Part shown: positions 10,758 to 20,844 of the stretch, piece after piece
How the letters are laid out: each line of letters starts with the position of its first letter
How positions within the stretch are numbered: the first letter of the stretch is position 1
DNA from: Candidatus Hydrogenedentota bacterium
Lineage (GTDB): Bacteria > Hydrogenedentota > Hydrogenedentia > Hydrogenedentales > SLHB01
DNA: 64,000 nt
Assembly (NCBI GenBank): GCA_045863335.1
Contig: BTVY01000020.1
Location: 1-64,000, forward strand
Direction: 5' to 3'
Notes under the pieces: model-generated
The model's database searches: none
The model's input: the letters and a program-made list of their open reading frames with translations, nothing else
Told to the model about the DNA's origin: nothing
Made by a program: the position numbers and the translations under genes

Positions 10758-10828
10758 GACGTACGGGACTATTGGGCAGCTGGCGCGCGTTATGCTCTCG
10801 GACAGCGCGCAAGATGGCGGGAAGAGGT

Positions 10829-12469
10829 ATGCGTAACATGTGCAGCGTATTCAGAGTCGCAAGCCTGCTTCTGGTTGTTTCGTGCCTGGCACTGGCACAG
10901 GCTCCTGAAGAAGCCGCCAACGACGGCCCATTCGTCGTCATTTGCCCCATCGTTACCGAACAGGGGACCATGATCGACGACGGTATCCTCGTGCTCGTCA
11001 ATCGCGCCATCGCCGAGGCAGAAGGCGCCGAGGCAATAATCTTCATCATCGACACTCCAGGCGGCCGGCTGGACTCCGCAATCGAGATCACGAATTCCAT
11101 CATGGACGCGCCGTGCAAGACCATCGCCTATATCAAAGGCACCGGCGCCATCTCCGCGGGCGCCCTGATCAGCTACTCGTGCGATGTCATTACGATGGGG
11201 CCCGGCAGCAACATCGGCGCCTCGCAAGTCGTCTATTTCACGGGCGAAGGCATGACGCCCGCCGGCGAGAAAGAAACCTCCTTCCTCCGGTCGAAATTTG
11301 CCGCCCTCGGTGAAGAGAAGGGGCACAATCCCGATATCGGCATGGCCATGGTCGACAAAGATATCGAGTTAATCGCCGTGCCGCGCGAGGAAGGCGGTTA
11401 CGACGTCTACGCCACGAACGCGGGACAGTCCAGCGGTTCGAGCGCTTCCGGCGCTGTGAACGAAATCCTGGAGGGTATTGAGGAAAACTCGGAAATCGAC
11501 CTGGGCCCCTTGAAGGAACTCGTCGAAAGCATCGCCGGCGGCGACGAGGAAGGCCCCACATCCGGCGAACAGGCCGTGCAGGCCGCCATTCAGTCCGGCT
11601 TGGCCGGGACCCATATCGTCGTAGGACCCGACAAACTGTTAACCCTCACGCCGGACGAAGCGGTGAAGTACAACCTCGCCACGGGGGAGTTCCGCACGTT
11701 GGAAAACCTGCTGCGCAGCGAAGGTCTGGAAAACGCGCGGCGAGTAGAACTCGAATTGACATGGTCGGAGGAGCTGTTCCGCTGGCTCACGAGTCCCACC
11801 GTTTCCGGAATCCTGCTCATGCTGGGAATCGGCGGACTGTACCTCGAGATCCGCACGCCGGGCTTCGGGTTGCCGGGGATTATCGGCATCGTTGCCCTGG
11901 CTTTGTACTTTGGCGCGCGAAGCGTCATCGGATTGGCGGATTGGGTCGATCTCCTGCTGGTACTGACCGGCCTTGTGCTCATCGCCATTGAAGCGTTCGT
12001 ACTGCCCGGGTTCGGAATCGCAGGTGTTGCCGGGATCCTGTGTTTGCTCGCGGGGCTGTATCTGTCGTTCACCTTCTCGGATTTCTACCTGCCGGACTAC
12101 TCCTGGTCGGTCGACCGCTTGCAGGACGCCGGAAAAACCGTGACCCTCACCACCGTAGGCCTAATTGTATTCACGGTGATTTTGTGGAAGGTGTTTCCAC
12201 GCACACCCATTTATGGAAGGCTTGTACTGGCCGACGCCCAAGACGTGGCCATGGGATATTCCGTGCAATCCGAACAGGATCGGTCTTCCGCGATTGGCCT
12301 GAAAGGAGTCGCGACCAGCATGCTTCGCCCCGCCGGGCGGGGACGATTCGGCGACAAGACGTACCAAGTGGTGAGCCGGGCCGAGTTCATTGAAGAAGGG
12401 ACACCCATTACGATCGTTGAAGTAGAAGGCAACCGCTACGTAGTCGATCGCGTGAAAGAAAACGCGTAA
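10829..12469 (+). CDS. nfeD: Long-form NfeD: ClpP-class serine protease domain, TM bundle and C-terminal OB-fold (YqeZ-like)
   Basis: Signal peptide, IDTPGG, AISAGALI (catalytic Ser region), KLLTLT, EIRTPGFGLPG and LPGFGIAG. C-terminal G...LRPAG...EFIEEG...VEGNRYVV. Confidence 0.92.
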   Translation: MRNMCSVFRVASLLLVVSCLALAQAPEEAANDGPFVVICPIVTEQGTMIDDGILVLVNRAIAEAEGAEAIIFIIDTPGGRLDSAIEITNSIMDAPCKTIAYIKGTGAISAGALISYSCDVITMGPGSNIGASQVVYFTGEGMTPAGEKETSFLRSKFAALGEEKGHNPDIGMAMVDKDIELIAVPREEGGYDVYATNAGQSSGSSASGAVNEILEGIEENSEIDLGPLKELVESIAGGDEEGPTSGEQAVQAAIQSGLAGTHIVVGPDKLLTLTPDEAVKYNLATGEFRTLENLLRSEGLENARRVELELTWSEELFRWLTSPTVSGILLMLGIGGLYLEIRTPGFGLPGIIGIVALALYFGARSVIGLADWVDLLLVLTGLVLIAIEAFVLPGFGIAGVAGILCLLAGLYLSFTFSDFYLPDYSWSVDRLQDAGKTVTLTTVGLIVFTVILWKVFPRTPIYGRLVLADAQDVAMGYSVQSEQDRSSAIGLKGVATSMLRPAGRGRFGDKTYQVVSRAEFIEEGTPITIVEVEGNRYVVDRVKENA

Positions 12470-12497: not shown

Positions 12498-12797
12498 ATG
12501 GATGTTCGCACGTCGTTGATTCACATGCTGAAAGGACTGCGCGAGGAAATGCTCGCCATCCAGCAGCAAGGCGCCGGGTACTACAGTTGCACGCCTATGG
12601 CCCGGCGATACAACCGCTTGCTCGAACAGGCGCGCCATCTGTTCCCCGAAACGGACGGATTAATCGGGACTTTCGAGGCCCTCGAGGAAACCGACCCCAA
12701 GGATCCGGCGGACAAGATGAAGGTCGTTCAGGGTATCCGGCTCGAGATCGGTCAGCTCCTCACGCTGCTCGAATCCGCCGAGGAGCAGAAGAAATGA
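12498..12797 (+). CDS. Small soluble hypothetical protein (99 aa)
   Basis: Purine-rich RBS, genome-typical codon usage and an ATGA overlap with the next gene. Confidence 0.7.
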   Translation: MDVRTSLIHMLKGLREEMLAIQQQGAGYYSCTPMARRYNRLLEQARHLFPETDGLIGTFEALEETDPKDPADKMKVVQGIRLEIGQLLTLLESAEEQKK

Positions 12798-13273
12798 TCT
12801 GGTGGGTCGGATTCTTCTTCGCAGCGGGAATTGCACTGATTCTCGTGGAGTTCATCCTTCCAGGTCTGGTCTGCGGAATCTTGGGCGGCACATTCCTCGT
12901 CGTGAGCTGTGGTATCGCATTATACAATTTCCCCCAGCACGGTATGTTCATCATTTTCGGCGAGGGCCTCGCGGCCGCGCTTTGCATCGGACTCGGATTC
13001 TACTTCTTCCCCCGCTCTGTCGTCGGCAGAGCAATGATTCTGGAAGATAGCCAACAGCAGGAGGCCGGCTGGGTTTCCGACACGTCCAACGCCGCGCTAA
13101 TGGGTAAGTTGGGTGAGGTATTCACCGATCTCAGGCCCGCCGGGACCGTGATGATTAATGGCGAGCGCGTCAACGCGGTGTCCTCAGGCGAATACATTGC
13201 CAGCGGTGTTGCCGTTCGCGTTATCGAAGTACACGGTAACCGCGTGGTCGTCGAGGAAGTTGCAAAGGCTTAG
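12794..13273 (+). CDS. Short-form NfeD family protein (TM helices plus OB-fold)
   Basis: Three hydrophobic segments including VEFILPG, then GKLGEVFTDLRPAGTVMINGERVNAVSSGEYI...VIEVHGNRVVV. Confidence 0.9.
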   Translation: MIWWVGFFFAAGIALILVEFILPGLVCGILGGTFLVVSCGIALYNFPQHGMFIIFGEGLAAALCIGLGFYFFPRSVVGRAMILEDSQQQEAGWVSDTSNAALMGKLGEVFTDLRPAGTVMINGERVNAVSSGEYIASGVAVRVIEVHGNRVVVEEVAKA

Positions 13274-13292
13274 CTTCATTCCGGGAGTGCTG

Positions 13293-13913
13293 ATGCCGAA
13301 TCTCGTCATCGCGGTAGCGCTATTCCTTGGATCGATTGTAGCCTTCGCGATCGGAGTCATGGTCTTTACCGTTTTTGGGCCATGGCTGCGCGCACGAGCG
13401 GGCCGCGCTCCCATAGCGTGGTTGCGGCTGTGCACGATGGCGATGCGGCGCGTAAACCTCGGTACCGTGGTCAACGTGTATATCCTGGCAAAGCAAGCTG
13501 GCGTGAACGCGTCGATTGACGAAATCGAATCGCACATGCTCGCGGGTGGCAATGTGAATCGCGTCATGGTGGCCGCGGCGGTGGCTCGAAGGGCCGACGT
13601 ATCGTTTTCGTTTCGCATGGCGGCCGGCTTCGATCTCTCCGGGCGCGATGTCGTTTCCATCGCGCAAGATCTTGTCCATGCAAAAGAAACCGGGCTGCGG
13701 GAGCAGGCTGAAAAGGCAAACCGCGAAGCCCTTGCCGCTCGGGTGGGCAGGACCGCGGAGGTAGTGCATGCCATCGGTCCGCCGGGGCTGGTTACGGTGG
13801 ACGGTGAATTGGTACAGGCGGTCTCGGTTGGCGGTTACCTCCCGAAAGGTGCTACCGTAGAAATAGTGGGAACAAAAGATAACATGGTCGTGGTTAAGGC
13901 GGCCGCGGATTAG
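13293..13913 (+). CDS. Chimeric protein: FloA-like N-terminal region fused to an NfeD-type C-terminal OB-fold
   Basis: IESHMLAGGNVNRV...AAGFDLSGRDV aligns by eye with [14 protein letters not shown]...[11 protein letters not shown] of the next gene. The C-terminal VGRTAEV...GPPGLVTVDGELVQAVSVGGYLPKGATVEIVG aligns with the OB-fold of the previous gene. Confidence 0.8.
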   Translation: MPNLVIAVALFLGSIVAFAIGVMVFTVFGPWLRARAGRAPIAWLRLCTMAMRRVNLGTVVNVYILAKQAGVNASIDEIESHMLAGGNVNRVMVAAAVARRADVSFSFRMAAGFDLSGRDVVSIAQDLVHAKETGLREQAEKANREALAARVGRTAEVVHAIGPPGLVTVDGELVQAVSVGGYLPKGATVEIVGTKDNMVVVKAAAD

Positions 13914-13928
13914 GAAAGGACCCAGCTA

Positions 13929-14951
13929 ATGTTAGGAACCTTCTACACGATTCTTGGCGTGGCAGCGGCCATCGTTGTACTCATCTTTCTGGTCATTGTC
14001 CTTACCTTCTTCAAACTGTATATCCAGGCCTTGCTTTCGGGCGCGCGGGTCAGCCTGCTGAGTTTGGTGGCCATGCGGCTCCGTAAGGTCAACCCTTCCG
14101 TAATCGTGGAAAGCCGCATTAACGCCGTGAAAGCCGGCCTCAACATTTCCACCAACGAACTGGAGGCCCACTACCTCGCGGGCGGCAACGTCGTGCGCGT
14201 CGTGCAGGCGCTTATCGCAGCTAACAAAGCCAATATTGAGCTGAACTTCCAGCGCGCCACGGCCATCGACCTCGCAGGCCGCGACATTCTCGACGCCGTG
14301 CAAACTTCCGTGAATCCGAAGGTCATCGACTGCCCGGATCCCCGGCAGGGTCAATCTACGGTGGCCGCCGTAGCCATGGACGGTATTCAGCTCAAAGCAA
14401 AAGCCCGCGTGACCGTGCGCACGAACATCAATAGCCTCGTCGGCGGCGCTACGGAAGAAACCATCATCGCGCGCGTGGGCGAAGGTATCGTGACGACCAT
14501 CGGCTCCTCCCCGACGCACAAGCAGGTGCTGGAGAATCCCGACCGCATTTCGAAAGTTGTGTTGCAGCGCGGCCTCGACGCGGGAACGGCGTTTGAAATC
14601 TTGTCGATCGATATCGCCGACGTGGACGTGGGCGAAAACATCGGCGCTCAGTTGCAGACGTCGCAGGCCGAAGCCGACAAGCAGATCGCCCAGGCCCGCG
14701 CGGAAGAGCGCCGCGCCATGGCCTACGCCCGCGAACAGGAAATGCGCGCCCAGGTGATCGAAATGCGCGCCCGCGTAGTCGAGGCGGAAGCCGAAGTGCC
14801 CAAGGCCATGGCAGAGGCCTTCCGGAGCGGTAACTTGGGCATCATGGACTACTACCGCATGAAGAACGTCATGGCCGACACGAGCATGCGTGAATCCATC
14901 TCGAAGACGGAAGGACGCCCGGACGACGACAGCACCAATCCGCGGACCTAA
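13929..14951 (+). CDS. floA: Flotillin-like protein FloA (YqfA/UPF0365)
   Basis: [70 protein letters not shown] and GIMDYY. Confidence 0.96.
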
Positions 14952-14969: not shown

Positions 14970-15725
14970 ATGAATAACATCGAGGATCTGATCTATCTCC
15001 TCTTCTTCGTGATCTTCGTGATCGTCGCGATCGCGCGAAAGTTCACGGAACAGCGAGAGATCACCAAGCACCAGGAGGAGATGCGTCGCAAGAAGCCGCA
15101 GGAAATGCCGGAGACGACGCGCCGCATGCTCTACGGTGACGACGTGCCCACGGCGCGTCCGCGTTTCGGCGATGATGACGAAGAGGGGCCGGTTATCGCG
15201 CCTTCGCGCCGGGAACCGCAGATCCCCACAGCCCAGCCGCGGCAACAACAGCGCCGGGTGCCGCCTCCCGTTGCGCCTCGCCAATCGACGCAGCGCTCGG
15301 CAACGGCAGCGCCGCAACGGCCTGTGCCGCCGCCCGTCCGGCCCGTTGCCCCTGCCCCCCGTGTGGAATCTGCACGGGAAAGGGCGGCTGGTGCGTCGAC
15401 TCCGTTCCGGCCGCAAGAGCAGCAACGGCGGTTAGCGCCGGAGCAACGTCGCGCGGCGCCCCCCATGCGGCAGACGCCACAGCGCACACAGCAAGCACAG
15501 CGTCCGGCTTCACCGCCTCCGGTGGTCGTTCAGCCGACGCAACAAACGCGTCGCCGGCCCGCTCAGGCTCCCGGACTTCCCGCGCCGCCGCAGCGCCCGG
15601 CAGCGCGCAAGGCGCAGCATGCACCTGCCGCATCCCGCTTCTTCGAGCACCGCGGCGAGTTGCGGCGCGCAATCCTGTTGCGGGAAATCCTCGGCCCGCC
15701 AAAGGCATTCGAGGGCCTGGACTAG
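14970..15725 (+). CDS. YqfB-like protein: N-terminal membrane anchor, Pro/Arg/Gln-rich disordered linker and conserved C-terminal motif
   Basis: N-terminal TM segment, a low-complexity middle and C-terminal LRRAILLREILGPPKA, typical of genes following floA. Confidence 0.7.
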   Translation: MNNIEDLIYLLFFVIFVIVAIARKFTEQREITKHQEEMRRKKPQEMPETTRRMLYGDDVPTARPRFGDDDEEGPVIAPSRREPQIPTAQPRQQQRRVPPPVAPRQSTQRSATAAPQRPVPPPVRPVAPAPRVESARERAAGASTPFRPQEQQRRLAPEQRRAAPPMRQTPQRTQQAQRPASPPPVVVQPTQQTRRRPAQAPGLPAPPQRPAARKAQHAPAASRFFEHRGELRRAILLREILGPPKAFEGLD

Positions 15726-15748: not shown

Positions 15749-15785
15749 ACGGGCGTCGTCACCCGACGGCGCCCGTTTCCCTTTC
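15749..15785 (+). terminator. Intrinsic terminator of the flotillin operon
   Basis: Stem ACGGGCGTCGTC / GACGGCGCCCGT (15749-15776, one G-U pair) followed by TTCCCTTT. Confidence 0.65.
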
Positions 15786-15901
15786 ACGTCTCCACCCCCA
15801 ATCGGGATCGGTATCGAAATCACTTTGCTTCAAAGCCTACACAATCAACAGTATCCGAAATGGTAGAAGCGCCATGGCGCAAGCTGTTAAACTGTTCGCT
15901 T

Positions 15902-17584
15902 ATGAGTGACGAGAACAAGCCCATCATCGTGCAATCCGACCGATCTGTATTGCTGGAAACGGACGGACCCAAATTTGAAGACGCGCGGGACAGCATTGCG
16001 GCCTTTGCCGAGTTGGTGAAATCCCCCGAACACATTCACACCTACCGGATTACGCCGCTCTCCCTGTGGAATGCCGCCGCGTCGGGCATGACGGCCGGCG
16101 AAATCGTCGATCATCTCAAGGCCTTCAGCCGCTACGAGATTCCTGAAAATGTCATCGTCGATATCGAGGATAACGTCGCCCGCTACGGACGTCTGAAATT
16201 GTACAAACAGGAAGACGGCGGCGACCTCGTCCTCCATTCCGAAGACAGCCTGCTCATTATGCAGTTGCTGAATCAGAAGGATCTGAAACCCTATGTAGCG
16301 GGATCGCCGGACGGACACCGCATCTTCGTCAAACCGGCCGACCGCGGCAACGTCAAGAGTGCGCTCATCAAGATCGGATTCCCGGTCGAAGACTTGGCCG
16401 GCTATATCGAAGGCGCGCCCCTGAAGCTGAGCTTCCGCGAGACCACCCTCTCCGGCACGCCCTTTGGCCTGCGCAAGTACCAGAAAGAGTCGGTCGACGC
16501 CTTCTACGCGAGCGGCTCGAACCACGGCGGAAGCGGCGTGGTCGTCCTTCCCTGCGGCGCGGGCAAGACCGTCGTCGGCATCGCGACCATCGAGCGGTTG
16601 CAGACACAGACTCTCGTCTTGACGACCAATACCGTTGCCCTTCGGCAATGGAAGAACGAACTCATCGACAAGACAACGATTTCCGAAGACCAATGCGGCG
16701 AATACAGCGGCGACTCCAAGGAAATTCGGCCGGTCACCTTCGCCACGTATCAGGTATTGACCTACCGCAAATCCAAGGACAGCCCCTTCGTCCATTTCAG
16801 TCTGTTCGACGAGGGCAATTGGGGCCTCATCGTGTACGACGAGGTCCATCTGCTCCCCGCGCCCGTGTTTCGCGCCACGGCGGCCTTGCAGGCGCGCCGC
16901 AGATTGGGACTCACCGCGACGCTCGTGCGCGAGGACGCCCGCGAGGACGACGTCTTCAGCCTCATCGGCCCGAAGAAATACGATATGCCTTGGAAAGTGC
17001 TGGAAAAGCAGGGCTGGATTGCGCAGGCCTTGTGCACGGAAGTGCGCGCACCGCTCTCTCAGGACGAACGCTACCGCTACGCCATCGCGGACAAGCGTGG
17101 GAAGTTCCGCATCGCCTCTACCAACCCCGTCAAAACGAGCGTCTGCGAGACATTGGTCAAGAAGCACAAGGAGGACAATGTCCTCATCATCGGCCAGTAC
17201 CTCGATCAGTTGAAGGTACTTGCCAAGCATTTCAAAGCGCCTATCATCACCGGGCAAACGGCGAACAAGAAGCGCGAGGAATTGTACGCGAAATTCCGCA
17301 CGGGCGAATGCAAGCTCCTCATCGTATCGAAGGTGGCCAACTTCGCCATCGATTTGCCGGACGCCAACGTGGCGATCCAGGTCTCTGGAACCTTCGGCTC
17401 CCGGCAGGAAGAAGCGCAGCGGCTGGGCCGAATCCTGCGACCTAAAAGCGAGGGCACTATCGCGCGGTTCTATTCCCTCGTATCCCGCGATACCTGCGAT
17501 CAGGACTACAGCGTCAAGCGCCAACTCTTTCTCACCGAGCAGGGCTACCGGTACGAGATCAAGAACTCCGACGATCTGAATTGA
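15902..17584 (+). CDS. Bacterial XPB/Ssl2-like SF2 DNA helicase
   Basis: PIIVQSDRSVLLE, KSPEHIHTYRITPLSLWNA, Walker A PCGAGKT, DEVH, GLTAT and QRLGRILR. Confidence 0.95.
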   Translation: MSDENKPIIVQSDRSVLLETDGPKFEDARDSIAAFAELVKSPEHIHTYRITPLSLWNAAASGMTAGEIVDHLKAFSRYEIPENVIVDIEDNVARYGRLKLYKQEDGGDLVLHSEDSLLIMQLLNQKDLKPYVAGSPDGHRIFVKPADRGNVKSALIKIGFPVEDLAGYIEGAPLKLSFRETTLSGTPFGLRKYQKESVDAFYASGSNHGGSGVVVLPCGAGKTVVGIATIERLQTQTLVLTTNTVALRQWKNELIDKTTISEDQCGEYSGDSKEIRPVTFATYQVLTYRKSKDSPFVHFSLFDEGNWGLIVYDEVHLLPAPVFRATAALQARRRLGLTATLVREDAREDDVFSLIGPKKYDMPWKVLEKQGWIAQALCTEVRAPLSQDERYRYAIADKRGKFRIASTNPVKTSVCETLVKKHKEDNVLIIGQYLDQLKVLAKHFKAPIITGQTANKKREELYAKFRTGECKLLIVSKVANFAIDLPDANVAIQVSGTFGSRQEEAQRLGRILRPKSEGTIARFYSLVSRDTCDQDYSVKRQLFLTEQGYRYEIKNSDDLN

Positions 17585-17697
17585 ACCTCCAGATCATCGC
17601 GATCGTAATCGCCGCTTCCGTTTCAAATCCGTGCGCACTCGAAACAGCAGACCGGGATCGCTATGCTTGTGGCTGGCGGCAGTCACGGAATCGCATC

Positions 17698-20600
17698 ATG
17701 GCAAACGTAAAACTCTATACAGGCACCTCATCATCATCGCGCACGCTGACAATCGATCGCATCATGCGCGAGCGCTGGGGGAAAGCCCTCCTTGTCGTGC
17801 CGACCCGTACCGAGGCCCGACAACGCCTTGAAAGACTCCTCCTTGACAGCGAACTGCCCGGCGCGTGGGGCGCGCCTGTACTCACGCTGGAAGATCTCGC
17901 GGCGCAGATACTCACAGATGCAGGCATCCGCGCGCATCGCATCGGCGCTATGGAACGGCGCATGCTCGTGGAAGGCGTGGTCCGCCGCCTCACCGACGAA
18001 GGCAAACTGACGGACCTAGGCGACGCGGCCACCTCTCCCGGATTCATCAATCACATCTTGGGCGTTATCACGCAACTCAAACAGGCGGCCGCCGAACCGG
18101 AACATTTCAGAAACGTGATCGGAACGCGCCGGCGGGCATCGTGGCTAGATCCCATCGTCGCCGCAGTATACGAAGGTTATCAGGAAGCGTTGATCCGCAG
18201 CCTCAGCTACGACCGCGTGGGCATCTACTGGCGGGCCGAACTCGCAGCACGAGAAACGCGTCCTCCACGACTTATCGGCATCGATACGCTCATTCTGGAT
18301 GATTTCGAAGACTTTACCCTGTCCGAGTTCCGGCTCCTTCAGGCCTTGGAGCCCCTGGTCAGCGACATGATCCTGGGACTCGATGCAGACCTGGAGGAAC
18401 CGAGCCGGCAGGACCTCTTCGAAATACAGCGAGACACGCTCAAAGCGATCCGAAAAGTGTGGCCGTCCGTAGAAATTGAGAATTTGCCAACGCCCCCTCC
18501 AACAACGTTCACCGAGTATCTCGCCCACGATATCTTCTGGAGACAACAGCCCGCCTCGCCCGAAGGGCTGCGCGCGAACGCGGAGATCGTGGCGTGCCCT
18601 GACCTGCGGCAGGAGATCGAATACGTCGGTCGTCGCATCAAGACCCTCGTGAACGAACAGAAGACGCCCTTGGACCGAATCGCGATAGTGTTTCGGGATA
18701 TCCAATCCGTAGCAACGGAGGTCCGTACCGTATTCGCAGAATTCGGTGTGCCGATTCGTGTCGACTGTCCAGATTCACTCGAAGCCACGCCGCTCGCCGC
18801 ATTTGTCCTGAATCTCTTCGAAGCCTGCCGGTCTTGGGCGCGCGAAGCCGTGCTCGACGTCATAACATCGCCGTGGTTCGCCGCCGGTGCCGCACCCCAA
18901 GCCCAGATCGATCTCTTCTCGCTCCTTGCCCGGCGGGCCGGGATTATCGAAGGACGAAATGAATGGATGGACGGTTTGGACCGGCTCCATAAGCAAATCC
19001 GCAACCTCGAAGACGACGGAGAATCCAGTTTTCGCATCCTGCCTCGCATGGAGGAAGCGCTGCTTGTACTCCGCGCACGCCTCGACACGCTGGACGCGAT
19101 AGCGCAGGCCCTGCCCCGACGCGACACGATCGCGGCGTTTATCGCGGCGCTGGCGGAGTGCCTTCGCCGTTGCGGATGCGGCCAGGAAGCAACGGTCCAT
19201 ATGCCACCGTGGGATCGCGAACGTGCGGACTCGTCGTGGCGAGCGTTGAATGCGGCACTCGGCCGCGTGGACGCGTGGTATCGTCGCACCGGAAGCGCCG
19301 CTTCCATTAGACTGGACGAGTTCGTCGTCGTGTTGCAGAATGCTTTATGCGATTCCGAACTCGATCTCAATGGACTCGGCGGCGTTGCATGCCGCGGCGC
19401 GGATGCCCTCCGAAGCACAACCTACGATTACATATTTCTCTGCGGCATGAACGAAGGCGAGTTCCCGCGCCCGCCGTCCATCGGCGCAATCTACACGGAT
19501 GACGATGTATCGGATCTCGAGGAACACAGCATTCAATTAGACACGAAGCAACGCCATGCGTCTCGCGAGATGCTCGCTTTTCATCACGTCCTCCGCGCGG
19601 CGAAGGAACACCTCGTGATGACCTGGCACGGACAAATCCAGGACGGCCGAGCCGCCAGTCCGAGCCCTTTTCTCGCGGACGCGTTGGAAATGCTCAACGA
19701 CTTGGGAGTGGAGTGCGCCAGGCCGGATCCCCCTGTATTCGTACCAATGCCGGAGTGCGTTGCAAGCGAGCGTGACGTCCGCAATGCCGCCTTTGCGCGG
19801 AGTGCGACACTTCGGGATCGCCACAGGAGCGACTTCAAGTATGCAATCGACGCGCTCTCCGTAGAGACCGCGCGGCAGGAAAGCGGCGGGTTCGACGTAT
19901 ACGACGGCGTTCTGGCGGACAAGAAGCTAATCGAACTCATTGCAGAACAATTCGGCTCAGACCATGAGTTCAGCGTCAATCAATTGGAGATGTACGCAAA
20001 CTGCCCCTTCCAATTCTTCCTGGCGCGAATACTCAATGTGTCCGTCGAGGAGGAACCCGGCACGGGTTTCGATCCTCTCGTGCGCGGCAGCATCCTTCAT
20101 GATGTGCTCCAAGCCTTTCACCGCGAGTTCACCGGACTACCCGTTTCGGACATTGCGGAAGCAGACGCCGAAGCCGCTATGCTGCGTCATCTCGACGACG
20201 TCTTTGCCCACCGCGCCTACCAGAGCACGAATACGCCCCCAAAAGCAGCCGAAGTGGAGCGGGCGCGTTTGACCGTGCTACTCGAACGTTACCTCACGAT
20301 CGCGCGTGATTCCGATGAAGCGATCTGGGCGCCAAGCCATTTCGAGGTGTCCTTCGGGAGTGGACGCGGAACGAGCGAAGACCCCTTGAGCACGGCAGAG
20401 CCCTTCGAACTCTCCACGAAAATCGGTCCGGTTCTCTTCAGCGGACGAATTGACCGGATTGATCGGCACGGAAACGACACGCGTATCGTCGATTACAAGA
20501 CCTCGGTCTACGCCCAGCAGTCGGATATCGAAGCCGGCGTCTCGATTCAGTTGCCCTTGTACGCGTTGGCCCTCGAAGAACACCTCGCTCCGGACACCAC

Positions 20601-20844
20601 CTGCACGGACGCGCGGTTCGTCCAGATTGGCGCTAAGAAATCCCTGCAAGGACTGTATTCAAAAACGGTAACCTGGGAAGAACGCCGGGAGAAGATTCGA
20701 GAGCAAGTCGCCGCGCTGGTGCAGGGTATCCGCGATGGCCGTTTCCCCCCTACGCCCTATCGTGAGATGTGCCGCGACTGCCAGGACCATCGGGCCTGCC
20801 GCTACGAGTCATCGCGCATCGAGCGTAAGGAGTCCAGCGAATGA
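17698..20844 (+). CDS. addB: AddB/RexB-like subunit with C-terminal PD-(D/E)xK nuclease and Fe-S staple
   Basis: Degenerate helicase domains, SVNQLEMYANCPFQFF, RGSILH, GRIDRID...IVDYKT, QLPLYA and C-terminal CRDCQDHRAC. The start is uncertain (17581 or 17698). Confidence 0.85.
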   Translation: MANVKLYTGTSSSSRTLTIDRIMRERWGKALLVVPTRTEARQRLERLLLDSELPGAWGAPVLTLEDLAAQILTDAGIRAHRIGAMERRMLVEGVVRRLTDEGKLTDLGDAATSPGFINHILGVITQLKQAAAEPEHFRNVIGTRRRASWLDPIVAAVYEGYQEALIRSLSYDRVGIYWRAELAARETRPPRLIGIDTLILDDFEDFTLSEFRLLQALEPLVSDMILGLDADLEEPSRQDLFEIQRDTLKAIRKVWPSVEIENLPTPPPTTFTEYLAHDIFWRQQPASPEGLRANAEIVACPDLRQEIEYVGRRIKTLVNEQKTPLDRIAIVFRDIQSVATEVRTVFAEFGVPIRVDCPDSLEATPLAAFVLNLFEACRSWAREAVLDVITSPWFAAGAAPQAQIDLFSLLARRAGIIEGRNEWMDGLDRLHKQIRNLEDDGESSFRILPRMEEALLVLRARLDTLDAIAQALPRRDTIAAFIAALAECLRRCGCGQEATVHMPPWDRERADSSWRALNAALGRVDAWYRRTGSAASIRLDEFVVVLQNALCDSELDLNGLGGVACRGADALRSTTYDYIFLCGMNEGEFPRPPSIGAIYTDDDVSDLEEHSIQLDTKQRHASREMLAFHHVLRAAKEHLVMTWHGQIQDGRAASPSPFLADALEMLNDLGVECARPDPPVFVPMPECVASERDVRNAAFARSATLRDRHRSDFKYAIDALSVETARQESGGFDVYDGVLADKKLIELIAEQFGSDHEFSVNQLEMYANCPFQFFLARILNVSVEEEPGTGFDPLVRGSILHDVLQAFHREFTGLPVSDIAEADAEAAMLRHLDDVFAHRAYQSTNTPPKAAEVERARLTVLLERYLTIARDSDEAIWAPSHFEVSFGSGRGTSEDPLSTAEPFELSTKIGPVLFSGRIDRIDRHGNDTRIVDYKTSVYAQQSDIEAGVSIQLPLYALALEEHLAPDTTCTDARFVQIGAKKSLQGLYSKTVTWEERREKIREQVAALVQGIRDGRFPPTPYREMCRDCQDHRACRYESSRIERKESSE

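Follow-up and report, generated by a model that had tools for sequence, protein, structure and literature searches.

A gene joining the N-terminal part of FloA to an NfeD OB-fold within the flotillin operon of Candidatus Hydrogenedentota

The window analyzed here, a 64,000-nucleotide stretch of a Candidatus Hydrogenedentota genome, carries a six-gene operon in the order long nfeD, a 99-aa open reading frame (ORF), short nfeD, a gene combining parts of floA and nfeD (the fusion), floA itself, and a gene for a Pro-rich membrane protein (Table 1). The fusion ends 15 bp upstream of floA, and the true start of the long NfeD may lie further inside its ORF. The 99-aa ORF encodes a soluble protein, is translationally coupled to the short nfeD and is under strong purifying selection (dN/dS about 0.05). 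Each of the 59 operon loci examined, from across the phylum, contains it (42 to 100% identity), and two Atlas clusters without a name, one with 73 members and one with 146, correspond to it. Judged from the sequences, it is an uncharacterized core member of the flotillin operon. Conservation of the Pro/Gln/Arg-rich low-complexity protein encoded after floA is limited in relatives to the first 60 residues; the position of its gene is presumably that of B. subtilis yqfB. A promoter and terminator scan performed at chance level (3 sites, against a shuffle mean of 5.6). Directly downstream of the operon (15860-20844, forward strand) are genes for an XPB/Rad25-like helicase and then an AddB-like helicase-nuclease.

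Table 1. Operon genes, elements of the fusion gene, and loci with related subdomain-1-only genes
Feature	Position or locus	Strand	Basis or remark
Long NfeD	10772..12469	+	Pfam PF25145 (NfeD1b N-terminal Clp-like), PF24961 membrane domain, PF01957 OB
99-aa conserved ORF	12498..12797	+	No Pfam match
Short NfeD, 159 aa; nearest source of fused OB	12794..13273	+	Pfam, pairwise identity
GGGAG ribosome-binding site	13283..13287	+	5 nt 5' of ATG; read from sequence
Fusion gene, 206 aa	13293..13913	+	FloA TM + PHB subdomain-1 joined to NfeD OB-fold
N-terminal helix, residues 2-36, one membrane span then basic stretch	13296..13400	+	AF2 helix; hydropathy, charge
Subdomain-1 hairpin repeat 1, residues 40-71	13410..13505	+	AF2 helices 43-51, 56-69; repeat HMM
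Subdomain-1 hairpin repeat 2, residues 72-103, ExHxxAGG motif	13506..13601	+	AF2 helices 75-83, 88-100; repeat HMM
Subdomain-1 hairpin repeat 3, residues 104-135, ends AKxxGL	13602..13697	+	AF2 helices 107-115, 120-140; repeat-end profile
Helical linker, residues 136-149	13698..13739	+	AF2 model
NfeD-type OB-fold, residues 150-203; G180/Y182 retained	13740..13901	+	Pfam, Foldseek, VIA-align
Intact floA, 340 aa	13929..14951	+	PF12127 533 bits; NCBIfam NF010186 543 bits, cut-off 393; AF2
Membrane-anchored Pro/Gln/Arg-rich protein	14970..15725	+	No Pfam match above cut-off
Terminator-like hairpin after last gene, 12-pair stem	15749..15776	+	Scan
Subdomain-1-only genes between short nfeD and floA	L056, L057, L058, L059, L060, L061, L062, L066, L067, L091, L092 (f3); L063 (G106)		

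As given in a preliminary description of this DNA, the fusion gene is an intact, stop-free frame with its own ribosome-binding site; the same GGGAG lies ahead of the start chosen for genomes G004 and G028. An upstream ATG at 13158 (251-aa frame) was rejected as the start because that frame overlaps the short nfeD and database homologues begin at the 13293 position. A partial FloA match at about residues 20 to 125 and an NfeD match at about 148 to 205 had been expected, and Pfam placed both above cut-off: residues 16-130 match positions 9-123 of the 314 in PF12127 (83 bits, cut-off 34) and residues 150-202 match PF01957 (43.9 bits, cut-off 29.1). On the FloA equivalog NF010186 the fusion scored 89.6 bits, below the cut-off of 393. 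It aligns with the adjacent FloA without gaps at 38% identity over 118 residues (E 6e-23), the similarity stopping at SVNPK of FloA, which bears out the proposal of a FloA-like part (about residues 1 to 125) that stops before SVNPKVI. The likeness of the C-terminal part to the upstream NfeD was traced to the short NfeD (34% identity over 95 residues, E 2e-10), as pairwise comparison with the long NfeD gave no significant match. All 27 aligned fusions scored as FloA and 26 of them as NfeD. No second copy of either part was found outside the operon in this genome, and the GC and GC3 of the fusion are near those of the neighboring genes.

That the gene is a singleton or an assembly chimera, as the preliminary description had allowed, was excluded. 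The junction is bridged by contigs from two DNA runs that belong to separate studies (X7 record 29, spanning 13323-14062, a strain with 65 differences in 746 bases, and X4 record 21, spanning 13517-13768), and the fusion occurs in 12 further genomes. Parts of the gene are also represented in RNA-library contigs (X3 record 13; X15 records 4 and 5), although such contigs are not proof of transcription. The joining of a FloA part to an NfeD OB-fold is real.

An AF2 model built on 16 sequences (pLDDT 87, pTM 0.68) consists of a helix at residues 2-36, six helices within 43-140 and five strands within 154-203. Residues 29-56, after the membrane span, include six K/R and no D/E, and by the positive-inside rule the rest of the fusion is predicted to be cytoplasmic. 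The model of the adjacent FloA has the same six helices (residues 43-128), followed by subdomain-2 strands (131-237) and a coiled-coil helix (238-299). Two marks of FloA membership, the N-terminal membrane helix and a PHB subdomain-1 of six helices, are thus present in the fusion. PHB subdomain-2 (the SPFH core) has no counterpart, the FloA similarity ending at model position 123 of 314, and the C-terminal coiled coil is missing; both absences had been proposed earlier. Matches of ABC-ATPase PDB entries to HMLAGGNVNRV (E 7e-4 and weaker) were set aside as an LSGGQ look-alike, since this stretch is FloA hairpin 2. A fold search with subdomain-1 as part of the whole fold gave generic helical-repeat matches only, the best being a designed filament (Z 7.8, rmsd 3.5 Å), and a Z of 7.8 is below a meaningful level for helical bundles.

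The six helices of subdomain-1 form three hairpins. On a repeat HMM that derives from the hairpin-2 unit, hairpin 1 scored 8.8 bits and hairpin 2 itself 25.4 bits, neither being equaled in 200 shuffles, and the whole unit of hairpin 3 scored weakly (1.5 bits, equaled by 6 of 200). A second profile, made from the ends of FloA hairpins 1 and 2, gave a mean of -10.3 over 27 sequences for fusion residues 123-135, compared with -22.0 for the corresponding end in FloA, -27 to -43 for 18 other registers and at most -28.4 for 1,000 shuffles. Hairpin 3 is complete in the fusion, whereas in FloA it is truncated and runs into subdomain-2. What had been described as a charged helix after the FloA part is indeed a helix, but its start (residues 123-135) belongs to this completed third repeat. 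A profile of the middle 32-residue hairpin found two to four units in every one of 10 expanded FloA-like proteins, which had been picked for showing several matched stretches; the units so found supplied the repeat HMM. On these profiles, FloA subdomain-1 here is best read as three 32-residue hairpin repeats; this reading was not encountered in the available text of the flotillin and NfeD literature consulted for the fusion. FloA-like proteins of up to 838 aa with many such repeats (P0035, P0036, P0047, P0069, P0145, P0042, P0160, P0025, P0051 and P0039) show what appears to be an expandable solenoid.

In the C-terminal half, the barrel superimposes on 3wwv with a Z of 12.7 and an rmsd of 1.4 Å over 63 residues; Foldseek and VIA-align also matched it to 3cp0, 2k5h, 2k14 and 8z5g. 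A sequence search of the PDB found no FloA structure. The multi-helix membrane domain of NfeD is missing before the barrel (no PF24961 match, a single membrane span, and a region that scores as FloA), as is the Clp-like N-terminal domain of NfeD1b (no PF25145 match). The linker motif G[WY]x[SA], scored by eye, was seen in 12 of the 13 short NfeDs compared and in none of 27 fusions. Two arginines, that of LRPxG (invariant among the NfeDs of the phylum, though not a curated family criterion) and that between beta4 and beta5, are each present in all 42 ordinary NfeDs and in none of 12 genome-derived fusions; they were found in 2 and 4, respectively, of 36 database fusions. Small or hydrophobic residues replace both. 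An aromatic F/Y in the beta3-beta4 loop is better retained (38/42 ordinary NfeDs, 9/12 genome-derived fusions, 14/36 database fusions). The 36 database fusions are not independent events, as 13 of them fall in an f1-like group. Four OB positions, G165, A176, G181 and V201, are invariant in 27 of 27 fusions.

Among 135 genomes from the phylum, many of them incomplete, at least 13 gave a full-length match to a profile of 27 fusions, up to 23 candidates being scored in each genome. All carriers belong to family f1 (at least 13 of 54 f1 genomes) and represent seven genera. In all 13 the fusion occupies the 617 to 784 bp between short nfeD and floA, which are at most 181 bp apart in the 10 f1 noncarriers checked. 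A tree of the four neighboring genes from the 59 genomes with both short nfeD and floA sequences united the 13 carriers in a single clade (SH-aLRT 99), which implies that the gene was gained once and lost twice, in G002 and in G120. These losses, together with the lack of a match in 122 of the 135 genomes, indicate that the gene is dispensable. The frame is intact in every carrier, at 202 to 215 aa and 28 to 100% identity.

By the Nei-Gojobori method, dN/dS of the fusion was 0.179 for the closest informative pair, G000 and G005 (40 synonymous and 23 nonsynonymous differences), and 0.153 for G000 and G004, for which a dS of 1.5 is near saturation. G000 and G003 are too close for an estimate (0 synonymous, 1 nonsynonymous difference), and six g11 pairs were saturated (0.07 to 0.46). 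The neighbors have lower ratios (short nfeD, 0.04 to 0.09; floA, 0.02 to 0.04). Within the fusion, from few codons, subdomain-1 gave 0.10 to 0.13 and the OB 0.23 to 0.31. The ratios of 0.15 to 0.18, the spread over at least 13 genomes and the single gain in the operon tree support the earlier view of an old, retained fusion, under purifying selection, and argue against neutral evolution of the gene.

In family f3, 11 of 12 loci have in the slot of the fusion a gene of 114 to 138 aa that comprises the membrane helix and subdomain-1 alone, and the same holds for G106 of family f5. No OB remnant was detected after 10 of these ORFs or in 2 control spacers (best E 0.92). A subdomain-1-only ORF in G050 (L064:2284-2694) lies off the operon contig, apparently lacks the membrane helix and has a complete third hairpin. 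FloA paralogues off the operon in G133 (L087:3449-4165) and G134 (L089:3041-3772) have the membrane helix and subdomain-1, no coiled coil, and about 100 more residues that by eye resemble a decayed subdomain-2.

Beyond the phylum, 3,975 matches were obtained among 50%-identity representatives; 148 scanned sequences drawn from the best 150 included 32 with subdomain-1 followed by an NfeD match, 22 of these above the NfeD cut-off. Named organisms accompany the clusters of three of 30 fusion representatives: Planctomycetaceae (MBT4866841.1), Phycisphaerae (MGB2821234.1) and a Planctomycetes bin (OQB87672.1). Many of the other database fusions are each represented by one contig, and misassembly could account for some of them. 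A metagenome scan with P0070 returned one fusion locus and eight ordinary floA loci. One Planctomycetaceae fusion, on a 2.2-kb contig, has a long, unrelated ORF after it instead of floA. Proteins combining the FloA N terminus with HATPase, ApbE, gyrase or ABC2 (P0067, P0077, P0117 and P0126) were excluded as probable assembly chimeras, and P0076, with the OB before FloA, as probable read-through. In P0057, FloA extends through subdomain-2 and the OB replaces the coiled coil, and P0026, P0028, P0041 and P0058 have two tandem copies of subdomain-1. Two ESM Atlas clusters are related: one of 434 members holds 144-aa FloA-domain proteins, most commonly from Planctomycetota, and one of 65 members, labeled 'Flotillin-like protein FloA/NfeD-like C-terminal...', has FloA in 100% and NfeD in 69%, with Ca. 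Hydrogenedentota the commonest source.

A single origin of all 31 fusions was rejected (AU p 0.0008; LG+G4, no mixture), a test weakened by long branches and few columns (98 subdomain-1 columns, with 64 of 157 rows chosen via a quick tree of 139). Three small fusion groups cluster with intact FloA-like rows on starred branches, and an unstarred branch (78/96) separates the f1 fusions from all other rows. A common origin of the f1 fusions and the f3 subdomain-1-only genes was not rejected (p 0.56). The fused OB is nearer to short NfeD (mean identity 0.24 to 0.43) than to long NfeD (0.18 to 0.30) in 11 of 12 genome-derived fusions, the remaining one being tied; a tree of the OB (57 columns) was mostly without resolution. 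Linkers range from almost none (P0070) to more than 20 residues (P0037), and junctions vary as well, P0052 retaining SVNPKV and P0057 the whole of subdomain-2.

The fusion probably arose by duplication across the nfeD/floA join. A tandem duplication running from the OB half of short nfeD into the first third of floA would give nfeD, then floA-N::OB, then floA, and would account for the position of the gene, for a domain order that reverses the gene order, and for recurrence. It would have been a single event in the common ancestor of one clade of a Ca. Hydrogenedentota family, with comparable events elsewhere. The completed hairpin 3 suggests a later adjustment or recombination between repeats. 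The Planctomycetaceae copy without a following floA counts against generality, and the duplication model would need a later relocation for it.

What is reported for S. aureus bears on possible functions. In the accessible part of PMC11222466, the NfeD OB binds the start of the FloA coiled coil via beta3-beta4, which variant V1 abolishes; OB-OB binding occurs via beta1-beta2, which variant V2 abolishes; and OB-OB contacts may link FloA dimers into rings. The basis is maps of about 8 Å and two-hybrid assays, and the authors want better maps. In the supplement V1 reads as 202GNF204, in a figure whose scrambled layout leaves this ambiguous, and V2 seems to lie just before beta1; the F/Y counted above in the beta3-beta4 loop is the aromatic equivalent to that of V1. 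The same source assigns the FloA dimer contact to subdomain-2 and multimerization to the coiled coil, and describes helices 1 and 2 of subdomain-1 as binding microdomain lipid and localizing FloA. In PH1510-C, a beta1-beta2 proline makes a crystal contact, according to the portion of PMC4208085 available. When FloA (residues 5-328, alignment A5) and the fusion (alignment A6) were co-folded, both runs scored 0.00, which was counted neither for nor against binding.

The explanation that best fits these observations, to which we give close to an even chance, is that the fusion is an accessory subunit of the FloA/NfeD scaffold: a FloA-anchored OB carrier that still binds FloA, has its other face changed and modulates FloA assemblies. 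The FloA-derived membrane helix and subdomain-1 would take it to the membrane patch of FloA, the completed third hairpin would let subdomain-1 fold without subdomain-2, and the protein would be unable to polymerize in the manner of FloA. Its OB appears to retain the beta3-beta4 loop tied to FloA binding, with the beta1-beta2 side remodeled, so that it is possibly a monovalent OB carrier. As a third such carrier it would bind or compete at the NfeD site of FloA and alter the size or linkage of assemblies. The roles suggested earlier, adaptor or capping subunit, are both possible; if it caps, an OB that binds FloA but no other OB is likelier than insertion as a ring subunit, because the dimerizing and multimerizing parts of FloA (subdomain-2 contact and coiled coil) are absent. 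Several points count against the accessory-subunit explanation: selection is weaker than on the neighbors and weakest on the OB, the gene is dispensable, and 3 of 12 genome-derived fusions have lost the loop aromatic, which a minority of database fusions keep. The S. aureus model moreover comes from a distant phylum, and staphyloxanthin in the Ca. Hydrogenedentota lineage would be an assumption.

An OB-centered role may also miss the point, given the subdomain-1-only genes in the same slot. It is conceivable, if on balance unlikely, that the membrane helix and subdomain-1 are the working part, a free 'mini-flotillin' that would bind lipid or pack against FloA at the membrane, with the OB a passenger or of minor use and drifting. 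The subdomain-1-only ORFs of f3 and G106, the shared origin with the f1 fusions that was not rejected, the Atlas cluster of 144-aa FloA-domain proteins, the lower dN/dS of subdomain-1 and the loss from the OB of two invariant arginines and the linker motif all fit this. However, all 13 carriers have an intact OB, even at 28% identity, and its four positions are invariant; its dN/dS is still far under 1, and fusions to an OB were retained more than once. A bolder form of the accessory-subunit explanation, which we consider doubtful, holds that subdomain-1 is a detachable, expandable module of 32-residue helical repeats that has more than once been made into a regulator of flotillin assemblies, here a monovalent hybrid whose OB would bind the FloA coiled coil without pairing with a second OB and would thereby end the OB-OB links joining FloA dimers into rings.

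The preliminary description had taken the fusion to point to the N-terminal region of FloA as the NfeD contact, in the strict Rosetta stone sense that the OB normally docks on subdomain-1 and the fusion freezes this contact in one chain. This is improbable. The same domain order has been repeatedly retained, the replacement of the arginines by small or hydrophobic residues is what a newly buried face might show, and a related SPFH-NfeD cage is described as 26 heterodimers (PMC13086221, from the part available). Against this, the S. aureus data, the only direct ones, locate the OB where the coiled coil begins (PMC11222466), and the differing linkers and junctions of the fusion families argue against one fixed subdomain-1/OB interface. 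The order of FloA first and OB second is a mechanical result of tandem duplication, which makes the Rosetta stone inference weak; the contact site does not follow from the fusion. That the gene is a slowly decaying by-product of duplication with no selected function is very improbable and already largely refuted: relaxed rates relative to the neighbors, two losses among 15 genomes, an easy mechanical origin and lost invariant residues would agree with decay, but the frame is intact across 13 genomes and seven genera, synonymous differences exceed nonsynonymous ones, and the repeat has a new, conserved end.

On the comparative evidence, the fusion is a real, selected and recurrent domain rearrangement within a known operon. 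The role of NfeD for bacterial flotillins and its binding site are unsettled, the available S. aureus maps being at about 8 Å, and the fusion would be a natural dissection in which one OB face is kept and the other changed. It also suggests, from models and repeat profiles, that the lipid-targeting subdomain-1 of FloA, a repeat of three units, folds independently and is under selection by itself; elsewhere it is expanded or alone. If the hybrid does terminate OB-OB links, bacterial flotillin microdomains would have a natural control of their size that is genetically encoded, and the hybrid would be a ready tool for separating the functions of the two OB faces of NfeD. The hosts are uncultured, the gene is accessory and dispensable, and both domains are known, which limits the significance. 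The architecture had been held to be undescribed, and full-text literature searches, seen as titles and abstract openings, returned no description of the chimera; a 2009 NfeD survey and a 2020 review could mention such fusions. It is already visible in automatic annotation, the label of the 65-member Atlas cluster, which is not a description. The available text of PMC2636767 mentions SPFH gene duplications and uses 'fusion' for NfeD with a protease; no SPFH5-NfeD chimera was found in it.

Compared with known systems, the fusion resembles FloA/YqfA (SPFH5, PF12127, UPF0365; B. subtilis and S. aureus) in its membrane helix and six-helix PHB subdomain-1, which are colinear with those of FloA, and differs in lacking subdomain-2, the coiled coil and the C-terminal helix, in its complete third hairpin and in ending with an OB-fold. 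Like short NfeD/STOPP proteins (PF01957; YuaF, YbbJ, PH0471 and S. aureus NfeD), it has a membrane-anchored C-terminal OB of five strands and an adjacent SPFH gene. Unlike them, it is anchored by a FloA module instead of three to six NfeD helices, has lost both arginines and the G[WY]xS linker motif, and adds a third OB gene to an operon with two ordinary nfeD genes. The surrounding operon is like the nfeD-SPFH5 operon yqeZ-yqfA, as presented in the available part of PMC2636767, in having a long NfeD with a Clp-like domain upstream of the SPFH5 gene, and unlike it in comprising six genes. The fusion thus resembles a short NfeD with its anchor swapped, and is a full member of neither parent family.
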